Of a stretch of DNA of 64,000 nucleotides, positions 8,378 to 27,108 are shown in pieces; the stretch's first letter is position 1, and the number at the start of each line of letters is the position of its first letter. The DNA is from Escherichia coli O157:H7. GTDB taxonomy: Bacteria; Pseudomonadota; Gammaproteobacteria; Enterobacterales; Enterobacteriaceae. A program made the translations under genes and the position numbers. Location of the stretch: assembly GCF_013167455.1 (NCBI RefSeq), contig NZ_CP038328.1, one strand, 5' to 3'. The notes below the pieces were generated by a model. It saw only the letters and a program-made list of their open reading frames with translations, did not search any database and was not told where the DNA came from.

Positions 8378-9227
8378 ACGTGACGCCGGGCGCGAGGCGC
8401 TGGAGAAAAAAGGCTGGTGGCGCAGTCACCGTTGGCTGGTGTTACGTCGCCTTTGTCAGTTCTTCGTGCTGGGGATGTTTTTGAGCGGTCCGTGGTTTGG
8501 TGTGTGGATCTTGCACGGCAACTATAGCAGTAGCCTGTTATTCGACACCGTTCCGCTGACCGATCCGCTGATGACGCTGCAAAGTCTTGCCAGTGGTCAT
8601 CTGCCTGCCACGGTGGCGTTGACCGGTGCGGTGATTATCACCGTGCTCTACGCCCTGGCAGGAAAGCGATTATTTTGCAGCTGGGTCTGCCCGCTGAACC
8701 CGATTACCGACTTAGCGAACTGGTTACGCAGGCGCTTTGACCTCAATCAGTCTGCGACGATCCCTCGCCACATTCGCTACGTGCTGTTGGTGGTCATTCT
8801 GGTGGGATCAGCCTTAACTGGCACGCTCATCTGGGAATGGATCAACCCCGTTTCCCTGATGGGGCGTAGCCTGGTAATGGGCTTCGGCAGCGGCGCGCTG
8901 CTTATTCTCGCGCTGTTTTTATTTGATCTACTGGTCGTTGAACACGGCTGGTGCGGGCACATTTGTCCGGTTGGCGCGCTGTATGGCGTGCTGGGTAGCA
9001 AAGGTGTGATTACCGTTGTGGCCAGCGATCGGCAGAAATGTAACCGCTGTATGGATTGTTTTCATGTTTGCCCGGAACCGCATGTGCTACGTGCCCCGGT
9101 GCTGGATGAACAAAGCCCGGTGCAGGTCACCAGCCGCGATTGCATGACGTGCGGTCGCTGCGTGGATGTCTGTTCTGAGGATGTATTTACAATAACTACA
9201 CGATGGAGTTCGGGAGCGAAATCATGA
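8364..9227 (+). CDS. napH: membrane ferredoxin-type protein NapH
   Basis: 287 aa. TM helices plus C-terminal CxxCxxCxxxCP motifs. Overlaps the napG end. Confidence 0.9.
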
Positions 9228-9682: not shown

Positions 9683-10285
9683 ATGGGAAATTCTGACCGT
9701 AAGCCTGGTCTGATTAAGCGCCTGTGGAAATGGTGGCGTACCCCCAGCCGTCTGGCGCTGGGGACGCTGCTGTTGATCGGTTTTGTCGGCGGCATCGTCT
9801 TCTGGGGCGGCTTTAACACTGGGATGGAAAAAGCCAATACCGAAGAGTTCTGCATTAGCTGCCACGAAATGCGTAACACGGTGTATCAGGAATACATGGA
9901 TTCCGTGCACTACAACAACCGTAGCGGCGTCCGTGCGACCTGTCCGGATTGTCACGTTCCGCACGAGTTTGTGCCGAAGATGATACGCAAGCTCAAAGCA
10001 AGTAAAGAGCTGTATGGTAAAATTTTTGGCGTTATTGACACGCCGCAGAAATTTGAAGCTCATCGTCTGACGATGGCACAGAATGAGTGGCGGCGCATGA
10101 AGGACAATAACTCGCAGGAGTGCCGTAACTGTCACAACTTCGAGTATATGGATACAACCGCCCAGAAATCGGTTGCCGCGAAGATGCATGACCAGGCGGT
10201 GAAAGATGGGCAAACCTGTATTGATTGCCATAAAGGGATAGCGCACAAGCTGCCCGATATGCGTGAAGTCGAGCCAGGTTTTTAA
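9683..10285 (+). CDS. napC: tetraheme cytochrome c quinol dehydrogenase NapC
   Basis: 200 aa. N-terminal TM anchor and four CxxCH motifs (CISCH, CPDCH, CRNCH, CIDCH). Confidence 0.93.
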   Translation: MGNSDRKPGLIKRLWKWWRTPSRLALGTLLLIGFVGGIVFWGGFNTGMEKANTEEFCISCHEMRNTVYQEYMDSVHYNNRSGVRATCPDCHVPHEFVPKMIRKLKASKELYGKIFGVIDTPQKFEAHRLTMAQNEWRRMKDNNSQECRNCHNFEYMDTTAQKSVAAKMHDQAVKDGQTCIDCHKGIAHKLPDMREVEPGF

Positions 10286-10921: not shown

Positions 10922-11580
10922 TGTTCTGGCGCATTTTCCGTCTTGAGCTGCGCGTAGCGTTTCGCCATAGCGCTGAAATCGCCAACCCGCTGTGGTTCTT
11001 CCTGATTGTAATTACCCTTTTTCCGCTCAGTATCGGTCCGGAGCCGCAACTGCTGGCACGTATTGCACCGGGCATTATCTGGGTTGCCGCGCTGCTTTCA
11101 TCCTTGCTGGCGCTGGAACGACTGTTCCGTGACGATTTGCAGGACGGCAGTCTTGAACAATTGATGTTGTTGCCGTTACCCTTGCCCGCCGTTGTGCTGG
11201 CGAAGGTGATGGCGCACTGGATGGTAACCGGTCTGCCGTTACTCATCCTTTCGCCACTGGTAGCAATGCTACTGGGAATGGATGTTTATGGCTGGCAAGT
11301 GATGGCGTTAACGCTACTGCTGGGAACGCCTACGCTTGGCTTTCTCGGTGCACCGGGCGTGGCGCTGACAGTGGGACTTAAGCGCGGTGGTGTGCTGCTC
11401 AGCATACTGGTGTTACCGCTGACTATCCCATTACTCATCTTTGCCACCGCCGCGATGGACGCGGCTTCTATGCATTTGCCCGTTGACGGGTATCTGGCAA
11501 TTTTAGGCGCGTTGCTGGCAGGCACCGCGACATTAAGTCCTTTTGCGACGGCGGCAGCGTTACGAATCAGCATTCAATAA
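10918..11580 (+). CDS. ccmB: heme exporter membrane protein CcmB
   Basis: 220-aa polytopic membrane protein. Overlaps the ccmA stop. Synteny agrees. Confidence 0.92.
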
Positions 11581-20238: not shown

Positions 20239-20270
20239 AAAAAAACCAACCTTTACGGTTGGTTTTTTTG
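20239..20270. terminator. hairpin with A/T runs abutting attL (likely the ancestral proL terminator and yejO terminator)
   Basis: AAAAAACCAACC-ttta-cGGTTGGTTTTTTT sits 5 bp from the left direct repeat. Confidence 0.75.
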
Positions 20271-20275
20271 GGATT

Positions 20276-20292
20276 TTTGGTCGGCACGAGAG
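20276..20292. repeat. attL core (direct repeat of the tRNA-Pro 3' end)
   Basis: TTTGGTCGGCACGAGAG is identical to 29850-29866. Confidence 0.9.
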
Positions 20293-20353
20293 TAGTTTAA
20301 TTGAGTATGTAACTACATGATTTTAAATAATATGCTTGATTCAACTTTTAAAC

Positions 20354-20377
20354 CGTATAACTAAACGTATAACTAAA
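20354..20377 (+). promoter_or_regulatory. two tandem 12-bp arm-type repeats CGTATAACTAAA
   Basis: The same 12-mer occurs four more times at 29665-29720 next to the integrase gene. Typical arrangement for integrase arm-binding sites. Confidence 0.65.
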
Positions 20378-20559
20378 ATCATTTGCTGAAAAAGTGTACA
20401 ATTTAAATGCGAGTTTTCCTGTGGTAAAAGCTCCAACCGTAACGATGTTCGTTATGGTTGCCTTGATGGTCTGCGTGGTCATTATGACCATTCAGGATTT
20501 GAAGGGTGACGCTTCCGACTTCCTCAAATTGAGGTTTCCGAAAATATCAGCGGGTTAGG

Positions 20560-26064: not shown

Positions 26065-26385
26065 TTATCCCCGATTTGAATCAGTATTCGCTTTCTTTAT
26101 GGCATTTAATGCATCTGTGGCATTTTCAATGGTGCACCGTAACGAAATATTAAACTGTCCAAGCATTGCCAGTAACAAACCGATATTACCCATATCAATG
26201 CGCATGACCTTTTCGTCATAGTCCTCATTTTCTGACGCATGCCACATCAGGCTACCAATTGACGCAACAGCCATTGATATATTGTCAGTAGCCCCATCCG
26301 CAGCGGAATAAACCTTTTTAGCAATATCATGCTCACAGTTAAAATGCGGATTAATCAGGTACTGGTAATTTGACATATCAGGCAT
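26065..26385 (-). CDS. hypothetical protein (106 aa)
   Basis: I chose the internal start MPDMSNYQ. Its ATG overlaps the stop of the Icd-like ORF (ATGCCTGA). Occupies the position P4 gives to cnr, between the immunity region and alpha. This is positional only. Confidence 0.55.
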   Translation of the reverse strand: MPDMSNYQYLINPHFNCEHDIAKKVYSAADGATDNISMAVASIGSLMWHASENEDYDEKVMRIDMGNIGLLLAMLGQFNISLRCTIENATDALNAIKKANTDSNRG

Positions 26386-26566
26386 GGCACACCCCCTGAC
26401 GAATACGGGCGGCGAATACAGCAACACAACCGGACGGGCAACGGCTACGCGCTTCGCGTTCCGTCCAGGCGGTTACGTGGATGATTTGATGTTCTGACGC
26501 GCCAAAGATGATAAAGCGCCAGAGAAAGGCGGTTTGAGAATGTACAAGGGTAGGGATAGTAGCCAT
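26378..26566 (-). CDS. Icd-like (host cell division inhibitor family) small protein, 62 aa
   Basis: Start MATIPTLVHSQTAFLWRF...TEREARSR with a strong SD GAGGAGG. The sequence pattern is recalled from Icd-like proteins annotated in P4-like islands. Confidence 0.65.
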   Translation of the reverse strand: MATIPTLVHSQTAFLWRFIIFGASEHQIIHVTAWTEREARSRCPSGCVAVFAARIRQGVCHA

Positions 26567-26935
26567 GTTGGCAGCCTCCTCAGTGTGGTTAAGATAACCG
26601 CCACCGGAAACGCCAATTTCGCTGGTGGCGGACTGTACAGGGTTGGCGTAACCGGACACTGAAGAAACCGGCGCGGATTGCTCCGCCCCCGTACAGCCCA
26701 CCATTGATAAGGTGTGACTATGCGGCACAAAAAAACACGCGGGGCGCGTGTTATGCGCTTCAGTTTTGCCCAGGACGCCAATCCCGGCACCCGTTTTATG
26801 AGGTGCGCGGGAATCATAGCTATTTTCGACACTGGCGATCAACTGGTTTTTTTCTCCGATATTCAGGGCCAGAAAACGCCACACAAAGGCCGTTTGTGTG
26901 TGTACAAGGTGTGGTATATGATTTACGGCAACCAT
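26378..26935 (-). CDS. upstream Icd-like paralog ORF (start 26935) that stays in frame through the terminator, the RNA and the second Icd-like ORF
   Basis: AGGAG SD plus ATG at 26935. The N-terminus MVAVNHIPHLVHTQTAFVWRF parallels the 62-aa ORF. There is no stop until 26378. Whether the long product is made is doubtful. Confidence 0.3.
   Translation of the reverse strand: MVAVNHIPHLVHTQTAFVWRFLALNIGEKNQLIASVENSYDSRAPHKTGAGIGVLGKTEAHNTRPACFFVPHSHTLSMVGCTGAEQSAPVSSVSGYANPVQSATSEIGVSGGGYLNHTEEAANMATIPTLVHSQTAFLWRFIIFGASEHQIIHVTAWTEREARSRCPSGCVAVFAARIRQGVCHA
26623..26702 (-). ncRNA. candidate C4/CI-type antisense immunity RNA (tRNA-like, RNase P-substrate-like)
   Basis: On the minus strand, a 16-bp closing helix GGUGGGCUGUACGGGG/CCCUGUACAGUCCGCC has 3 G-U pairs that would be A-C mismatches on the other strand. 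It is followed by 3' ACCA. Inside are a GCAA-tetraloop hairpin and a 5-bp hairpin whose 12-nt loop UUUCUUCAGUGU is complementary to the downstream SD region. Confidence 0.55.
26729..26751 (-). terminator. rho-independent terminator upstream of the candidate RNA
   Basis: On the minus strand, ACACGCG-CCC-CGCGUGU followed by UUUUUUU. Confidence 0.75.
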
Positions 26936-27008
26936 AACGGCTCCTAGTTTACGTTGTTGGTTAGAAGCCCTGCGAGTGGTAACGACACTTGCGGGGCTTT
27001 GTCTTTTC
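26929..27008 (+). ncRNA. candidate cis-antisense sRNA covering the SD/start of the upstream Icd-like ORF
   Basis: Promoter-like TTGTGT-17-TATGAT at 26894-26922. A strand-specific 14-bp hairpin at 26965-26999 has 2 G-U pairs on the plus strand only and is followed by UGUCUUUUC. Confidence 0.3.
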
Positions 27009-27026
27009 ATCGATTACCTTGATAAA

Positions 27027-27108
27027 GGTGTCAGCCACTATATTAGTAACAGGTGTCAGCCACGTCAATAGTGTTTTTCCGTTTTCTTGTGTGTATACTG
27101 TCAGCCAC
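27027..27108. promoter_or_regulatory. three direct operator repeats (G)GTGTCAGCCAC
   Basis: Copies at 27027-27038, 27052-27063 and 27099-27108. Two overlap the minus-strand early promoter and one overlaps the -10/TSS of the RHH gene promoter. Confidence 0.7.
27040..27068 (-). promoter_or_regulatory. sigma70-type early promoter of the satellite (TTGACG-17-TAATAT)
   Basis: On the minus strand, -35 TTGACG (27068-27063), a 17-bp spacer and -10 TAATAT (27045-27040). Directed toward the icd-like/pri-rep operon. Confidence 0.65.

Follow-up and report, generated by a model that had tools for sequence, protein, structure and literature searches.

Host island and genes at the locus

The window, by which we mean the whole 64-kb stretch of DNA analysed, contains a 9.6-kb island delimited by copies of the tRNA-Pro(GGG) 3′ end at 20269–20300 and 29843–29874; in E. 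coli the island lies between yejM and yejO, at tRNA-Pro. Read along the minus strand, the island starts with an integrase (34% identical to P4 Int), a small ORF, a weak AlpA-like HTH gene (17.9 bits, below the cut-off) and an icd′ fragment, before which a YlcI/YnfO gene lies divergently on the plus strand. There follow an isrK-type element, a C4-type RNA and an icd-like gene, and beyond these a 120-aa ORF, a DUF4222 gene, a primase, further small ORFs, a Terminase_2 small subunit gene (terS) and an HK97-type capsid gene. Upstream of the RNA module there are the icd′ remnant and also a second promoter.

The icd-like gene (26378–26566, minus strand) encodes 62 aa beginning MATIPT and scores 57 bits on the NCBIfam profile NF033153 (Icd-like), in agreement with the assignment made in a preliminary description of this region. 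It is the first gene of an operon that continues with the 120-aa ORF, the DUF4222 gene and the P4-alpha-like primase, a D5-type protein (25777–23945, minus strand; Pfam D5_N, Pox_D5 and DUF5906) with 51% identity to P4 alpha over 452 aa.

When P4 proteins were used as tblastn queries, alpha and int were found, and homologues of sid, delta, psu or epsilon were absent from the 64-kb window. A P4-like satellite in the SatelliteFinder sense has psu, delta and sid in addition to int and alpha, and only the latter two are present here. What the locus does offer is the set of features expected of a Gram-negative PICI, namely an island of roughly the usual size (about 10–15 kb) at a tRNA site with int, a weak AlpA, primase, terS and capsid. 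Since sid, delta, psu and epsilon are lacking, we class the island as a PICI-type relative that has P4-type integration, replication and immunity modules. At only 9.6 kb the island may be defective, in which case the RNA module could be a relic.

An antisense RNA of the C4/CI family

Scanning the 64-kb window with Rfam gave a match to RF01695 (‘C4 antisense RNA’) at 26708–26621 on the minus strand, covering model positions 1–87 of 87 with 77.6 bits against a GA of 45 (E = 1.9e-13). The preliminary description had proposed a C4/CI-type RNA here and had named the Rfam covariance model as a check, and the full-length match bears the proposal out. Other Rfam matches that appeared at a permissive threshold (mir-1824, HCV_ARF_SL, R1162 and gyrA) were far below their thresholds and were treated as chance.

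The RNA is closed by a helix of 16 bp, three of them G-U, between GGUGGGCUGUACGGGG (26702–26687) and CCCUGUACAGUCCGCC (26642–26627), to which both the minimum free energy (MFE) fold and Rfam add a 17th pair (U-A). ACCA (26626–26623) stands directly 3′ of this helix. Enclosed are a tetraloop hairpin, GCGGA-GCAA-UCCGC (26686–26673), and hairpin 2, where a GCCGG/CCGGU stem displays the 12-nt loop UUUCUUCAGUGU (26667–26656). The helix with its G-U pairs, the ACCA and both inner hairpins had been described before and are present as placed then, and folding 26708–26621 returns that same structure as the MFE, which is also the Rfam consensus. Its energy is −46.9 kcal/mol (z = −5.2), a value matched by none of 200 dinucleotide shuffles. 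Folding of the complementary strand is less favourable (−35.6 kcal/mol, z = −2.2), so the C4 structure is strand-specific, again as had been claimed. The features by which Rfam C4 is recognized are found together at this locus: the covariance score, the ~17-bp helix with two hairpins, targets for two recognition elements (a′ and b′, see below) and an upstream a1/b1 copy of these targets.

An acceptor-like helix followed by ACCA, in an island integrated at a tRNA gene, might also be taken for a degenerate tRNA, a tRNA-like att remnant or a chance GC-rich hairpin. However, the Rfam tRNA model has no match at the position where the C4 model reaches 77.6 bits, ARAGORN finds only the tRNA-Pro at 29852–29928, and the att repeats (20269–20300 and 29843–29874) are far from the RNA. 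Neither the shuffling result nor the helix covariation in relatives (see below) is compatible with chance or decay, and we give this explanation next to no credence.

With the termini of the P1 and P4 RNAs as guide, the mature C4/CI RNA is predicted to extend from about 26703/26702 to 26623, giving a species of ~80 nt with an ACCA end. Homology suggests that its 5′ end would be produced by RNase P excision from the operon transcript, and features resembling an RNase P substrate are visible in the acceptor-like helix and the 3′ ACCA. This tail is not universal, being carried by roughly half of the relatives, while ACCC or other tails occur in about a third.

Upstream of the C4 RNA, an isrK-type element (the equivalent of P4 seqA and of P1 a1b1) occupies 26730–26806 on the minus strand, with a full-length match to RF01394 (66 bits, GA 50). 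It consists of two hairpins followed by an intrinsic terminator, identified in a terminator scan (stem 26752–26734 plus U7). The loop of its second hairpin holds a1, UUGGCGU (26781–26775), and b1, AAACUGAAG (26766–26758), is complementary to b′. In a permissive scan, RF03163 c4-a1b1 (‘a1, b1 targets of C4’) overlaps the element with 21 bits, below its GA of 46.7. A consensus scan placed a sigma-70-like candidate promoter, TTGATC-18 nt-TATGAT (9/12 matches), at 26842–26813 on the minus strand; the end of its −10 hexamer lies 7 nt upstream of the isrK-type element, which is the position of P4 PLE and of the P1 c4 promoter, and sequence and position suggest that it may function as such. The C4 RNA sits 3′ of a good intrinsic terminator and its synthesis hence depends on read-through, a point that counts against the module as proposed. 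Neither the promoter nor the a1/b1 copy within the isrK-type element had been noted in the preliminary description.

Recognition elements and their covariation in relatives

The precursor fold and duplex calculations reveal a two-part recognition, in which the hairpin-2 loop (b′) and a junction segment (a′) each have a complementary target in the leader of the same operon. The b′ loop (26656–26667) pairs with both b1 and b2, the latter being ACACUGAGGAGG (26575–26586, minus strand), which includes the Shine–Dalgarno sequence (SD) of the icd-like gene. In the b′/b2 duplex 12 of 12 nucleotides pair, nine by Watson–Crick and three by G-U pairs, and the ATG (26566) comes 8 nt further on; that the three G-U pairs lie at the SD end counts against the proposed model. 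Across both strands (~128,000 positions), only four other 12-mers pair fully with the b′ loop when the loop's own DNA complement is excepted, so a target site within 100 nt is not expected by chance. The second element, a′ (ACGCCAA, 26643–26649, minus strand), is complementary to a1 and to a2 (UUGGCGU, 26610–26616, minus strand). It is located in the multiloop junction, where it may or may not be accessible, a further point against the proposed model. Element a′ and its a2 target are additions to the preliminary description.

Calculated duplex energies are −14.7 kcal/mol for b′/b2, −10.3 kcal/mol for both a′/a2 and a′/a1, and −8.8 kcal/mol for b′/b1. An RNAduplex comparison of the 33-nt core with random 104-nt windows had a high background (mean −22 kcal/mol) and was uninformative, and we therefore relied on covariation at fixed offsets.

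The a2 target lies in the loop of an alternative hairpin (26598–26631, minus strand), formed by CCGCCACC (26631–26624) and GGUGGCGG (26605–26598). This hairpin uses the 3′ arm of the C4 closing helix and is mutually exclusive with it. It may gate C4 folding or 3′-end formation, or it may present a2.

Relatives were collected by two pattern scans of a viral-contig collection (at least 120 loci each) and from E. coli and phage loci, yielding 165 distinct instances. Because they were selected by pattern, from the matches listed (at least 120 loci per scan), these instances are a sample of related sequences rather than independent events. An alpha-like primase lies ~1.8 kb downstream in 67 of them, and sid, delta or psu are neighbours in 40; those with neither are probably phages or truncated loci.

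First, the fold itself is maintained by compensatory change. When 106 distinct C4 sequences were aligned, standard base pairs filled 98.5% of the cells that belong to the proposed structure, compared with 31–49% in slid controls, and two-sided changes are seen in 18 of the 27 helix pairs. Five pairs in hairpin 2 are invariant, as the scan patterns fixed the stem of that hairpin. Second, the recognition elements change together with their targets. The 165 instances fall into many specificity classes (at least 44 b′ loops and at least 22 a′ junctions, in many combinations), and the best complementary site stands at a fixed place, b2 ~53 nt and a2 ~23 nt downstream of the core. For b1/a1 the offsets lie upstream, at about −97/−112 in one sub-group and about −136/−151 in the other. 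Positions 5–11 of the b′ loop pair with b2 in 96–100% of the 165 instances, using 3–6 pair types per position, and positions 4–11 pair with b1 in 93–100%; the ~22 a′ classes covary with both a2 and a1. When a loop was tested against the leader of another class, pairing scores were much lower. Of the 165 instances, 155 have the SD within b2 and 124 have the ATG at the 8-nt spacing; MAT is the usual start of the ORF.

The alternative hairpin is also retained, with a 9-bp stem in 118 of 165 relatives and with a2 inside its loop in 162. The cross-instance control did not discriminate in this case, the arms being conserved, and the claim of conservation therefore rests on covarying pairs of arms such as GCUAUCGCC/GGCGAUAGC in P4. 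Of the earlier proposals, the pairing of all 12 loop nucleotides with the SD region at 26586–26575 is thus not only present but kept through ~44 different loop sequences, the 8-bp alternative pairing (26631–26624 with 26605–26598) is present and conserved in relatives, and the suggestion that homologues be searched for covariation in the closing helix was answered by abundant compensatory change.

A natural variant brings these relationships together. In the island of E. coli NCTC9112, which is 95.8% identical over the region, a′ reads AGGCUAA in place of ACGCCAA, and a1 and a2 both read UUAGCCU where the island in the window has UUGGCGU, making a three-way compensatory variant.

This pattern of variation also bears on a protein-coding interpretation, under which an ‘Ash family’ or P4 eta-like ORF would extend across isrK and C4 as far as icd, and its protein would be what is conserved. 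A single 210-aa ORF (27010–26378, minus strand) does span the whole module, PGAP annotates an ‘ash family protein’ pseudogene at this place, and residues 65–158 of the ORF, the translated isrK-C4-leader, match Pfam PF10554 Phage_ASH with 62 bits. Furthermore, among 160 relatives, 135 (84%) have no stop across C4 in the reading frame shared with icd, whereas the corresponding numbers for the two remaining frames are 38 and 68, and P4 carries a nested eta/kil pair. The variation, however, obeys RNA pairing, both in the 18 helix pairs with two-sided compensation and in the intermolecular covariation of loop and target. Encoded residues vary freely with the loop variants, junction lengths differ among relatives by single nucleotides that would shift any frame, and the ‘ash’ CDS is itself flagged as incomplete by PGAP. 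The unprocessed transcript may also be translated, as for P4 eta, alongside the RNA function, which such translation leaves unexplained; we consider it very unlikely that a protein accounts for the conservation.

Known systems and a proposed mechanism

A close parallel for the operon is phage P4 (NC_001609), where the Rfam scan places isrK at 8692–8615 and the C4 model at 8507–8420, the latter being CI RNA. A UUCACAGGAGG site precedes the Icd-like kil ORF, which scores 76 bits on NF033153. Aligning the 62-aa Icd-like ORF with P4 Kil by BLASTP returned no alignment, and the link between the two therefore rests on the profile they have in common and not on pairwise similarity. Order and strand in P4 (PLE-seqA-cI-seqC-kil/eta-alpha) are those of the island, with isrK, C4, a two-part target, the Icd-like ORF and the primase, and the alternative hairpin is found in P4 too (GCUAUCGCC/GGCGAUAGC), again with a2 as part of the loop. 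The recognition sequences of P4 differ from those of the island (b′ UAUCCUGUGAAG, a′ UUCUCAC), and unlike P4 the island has terS and HK97-type capsid genes in place of sid, delta and psu.

P1 and P7 immI (a1 b1-c4-a2 b2-icd-ant) shares with the island the RNA family, the a′/b′ recognition and the placement of b2 over the icd ribosome-binding site. In a P1-like punavirus the Rfam scan again gives isrK and C4, followed by CGUCUAAGGAGG and an Icd starting MATIPT, the same N-terminus as in the island; the closing helix, GGUGGGCUGUAUGGGG, is nearly the same as well. Differences from P1 are that replication genes (DUF4222, primase) rather than an antirepressor lie 3′ of icd, and that the module is part of a 9.6-kb island and not of a 95-kb plasmid prophage. 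Since the P4 and P1-like layouts match, the 64-kb window carries the classical module promoter-a1/b1 and terminator-C4/CI-a2/b2-icd/kil, and the C4/CI-type identity proposed at the outset is upheld by the presence of the same layout in P4 (CI) and in the P1-like phage (C4).

In both P1 and P4, an icd or kil gene that is not translated leads to premature termination, and the downstream genes stay off. RNase P and Rho reportedly take part in these phages, the former in processing and the latter in termination. We consider it highly probable that the region serves a P4-related satellite island as its RNA-based immunity module, with P4 seqA-cI-seqC-kil and P1/P7 a1b1-c4-a2b2-icd as homologues. On the P1 and P4 precedent, transcripts would start from the promoter at 26842–26813, and part of them would stop at the isrK-type terminator, yielding a short a1/b1 RNA. 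From the transcripts that read through, the ~80-nt C4/CI RNA with its tRNA-acceptor-like helix would be cut out, with RNase P, by homology, generating the 5′ end. The exposed b′ loop and the a′ junction would then pair with b2 and a2, both of which lie in the operon's own leader, and the b′-b2 duplex would cover the SD of the icd/kil-like gene and block its translation. As P1 and P4 suggest by analogy, a leader left untranslated would be subject to premature Rho-dependent termination, keeping the DUF4222 and alpha-like primase replication genes off and thereby conferring a sequence-specific immunity. That the repression would act in trans is suggested by homology and by the allele-specific covariation of the recognition elements. 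The upstream a1/b1 copy, pairing with the C4 elements in cis (in the precursor) or in trans (as the short RNA), could act as competitor or modulator, as has been shown for IsrK of Gifsy-1.

In Salmonella Gifsy-1 (isrK-orf45 (STnc1160)-anrP), a terminated RNA of the isrK model is followed by a stretch, conserved in nucleotide sequence and processed to ~80 nt, whose pairing partner is the central part of IsrK (PMC4825925). This pairing corresponds to that of a1/b1 with a′/b′ in the precursor fold of the island. Unlike in the island, the gene controlled in Gifsy-1 is an antirepressor, and the effect studied there is a positive one, IsrK in trans activating the ORF downstream at the level of translation; this effect responds to the central IsrK mutations G28A and G31A and to compensatory changes in ‘orf45’ (PMC4825925). 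Positive control of this kind could in principle be the main output here as well, the short a1/b1 RNA opening an inactive leader in trans to turn on icd and the genes behind it, with C4 serving mainly as the cis-inhibitory partner. The presence of a complete isrK model with its terminator would fit such a role, as does the 281-nt precursor fold, in which a1/b1 is paired with b′/a′ of C4. In P4 and P1, however, immunity is exerted in trans by the C4/CI RNA itself (PMC4825925, PMC3632133), and the SD-overlapping b2 provides the best-conserved pairing (96–100% at loop positions 5–11). We think it possible but rather unlikely that positive control is the principal output, and the two modes are not exclusive of one another.

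A further question raised by the immunity module is how it came into its present setting. The island retains an icd′ remnant, and a sister island in E. coli O111 lacks isrK-C4, its icd being intact at the place of the remnant. This is the basis for a reading in which the whole cassette was transferred in one piece, through recombination within icd, to a capsid/terS PICI-type island that otherwise has a different leader, in which a′ and b′ assort independently to give a large combinatorial range of immunity specificities, and in which the resulting code possibly governs cross-talk between satellites and helper prophages. Taken as a whole we regard this scenario as improbable.

The RNA at this locus is a C4/CI-family antisense RNA of a P4-related satellite island, and both the family and its occurrence on such islands have already been described. 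Gram-negative PICIs and helper-embedded PICIs (HE-PICIs) are islands of the same general type (int, AlpA-like regulator, primase, terS and capsid), and relatives of CI and seqA were detected in several of them with the Rfam C4 and isrK profiles (Mageeney et al. 2023, PMC10111431). This homology was also discussed by Hershko-Shalev et al. 2016. PMC4825925 summarizes the P4 CI/seqA/seqC mechanism as well as STnc1160, a processed species of ~80 nt that lies 3′ of IsrK, and the phrase ‘IsrK-C4 immunity system of P4’ is used in PMC3632133. With this homology and the occurrence in PICIs published, our finding is a correct rediscovery of a catalogued RNA and breaks no fundamentally new ground: C4/CI RNAs, the a/b targets they recognize and the occurrence of such RNAs both in P4-like elements and in Gram-negative PICIs are all on record. 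The mobility of the cassette and the size of the a′/b′ specificity repertoire may be what novelty is left, as they may not have been described systematically before. The added value is comparative and modest: a clean natural three-way compensatory variant and, across the family, the conservation of both recognition elements and of the a2-presenting hairpin through many specificity classes. For annotation, the broken ‘ash family protein’ of the NCBI pipeline would be replaced by an RNA immunity module, and the gene that follows would be the regulated Icd/Kil-like gene of the satellite's replication operon.

Island ends and chromosomal setting

The island is bounded by att sites at window positions 20269–20300 and 29843–29874, where the 3' end of tRNA-Pro is imperfectly repeated. 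Just inside each end lies a copy of an exact 26-nt repeat, CCGTATAACTAAACGTATAACTAAAA (20353–20378 and 29696–29721), and these copies may represent arm-type sites of the integrase. Two ordinary chromosomal features on the minus strand, the ribosomal-protein L25 (rplY) leader (33644–33669) and tRNA-Pro(GGG) (29852–29928), allowed us to assign the window to the yejK-yejM-proL-yejO-narP-ccm region of E. coli.

Variation in the C4 recognition elements

Comparison of the island of E. coli NCTC9112 (locus L002, 5300–5520) with window positions 26790–26600 reveals a natural compensatory variant in an island that is otherwise 95.8% identical: the C4 element a' changes from ACGCCAA to AGGCUAA, and its upstream and downstream complementary sites, a1 and a2, both change from UUGGCGU to UUAGCCU. 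This three-way change probably reflects a different immunity specificity. Allelic differences also occur within a single viral contig (L136), where two C4 genes on the minus strand (9706–9796 and 11018–11108), 1.3 kb apart, differ in both b' and a'. The pair may be tandem immunity modules or belong to adjacent elements.

The icd' remnant and its upstream region

Upstream of the module, the minus strand carries a partial Icd-like gene (icd', 26850–26952) consisting of a Shine-Dalgarno sequence, an ATG (26934) and the first ~25 codons. At the equivalent position in the sister island of E. coli O111:H11 (L124, 3100–3400) icd is intact, and isrK-C4 is absent. Taken together, the two arrangements suggest that the isrK-C4 cassette was gained by a swap, or lost, through recombination within icd. 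Just upstream of the icd' Shine-Dalgarno sequence is a 15-bp hairpin followed by CUUCUAACCAACAACG (26964–27000); since this hairpin is present in the O111 island lacking isrK-C4 as well, it may form the leader of another control system for icd. Further upstream, between icd' and the divergent YlcI/YnfO gene, two direct repeats of the form AGGTGTCAGCCAC(N)...AGT, 25 bp apart (27026–27072), overlap a second promoter-like site (27068–27040, minus strand) and look like candidate operators for a regulator.

Coding potential and the Ash family

Across the C4-to-icd interval of 160 related loci, the reading frame of the icd ATG stays open, with no stop codon over the whole C4 gene, in 84%, far more often than either of the other two frames. 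Such openness could stem from an eta-like nested gene, or merely from shared ancestry. In the window (26537–26818, minus strand) and in two of the comparison loci, L001 (6091–6504) and L002 (5259–5504), the isrK-C4 RNAs are overlain in the NCBI pipeline's annotation by a CDS, marked incomplete, for an 'ash family protein'. The translated isrK-C4 region is exactly what Pfam PF10554 (Phage_ASH) matches (62 bits). While a P4 eta-like translation of this region is a possible alternative, PF10554 may largely represent a translated non-coding RNA locus.
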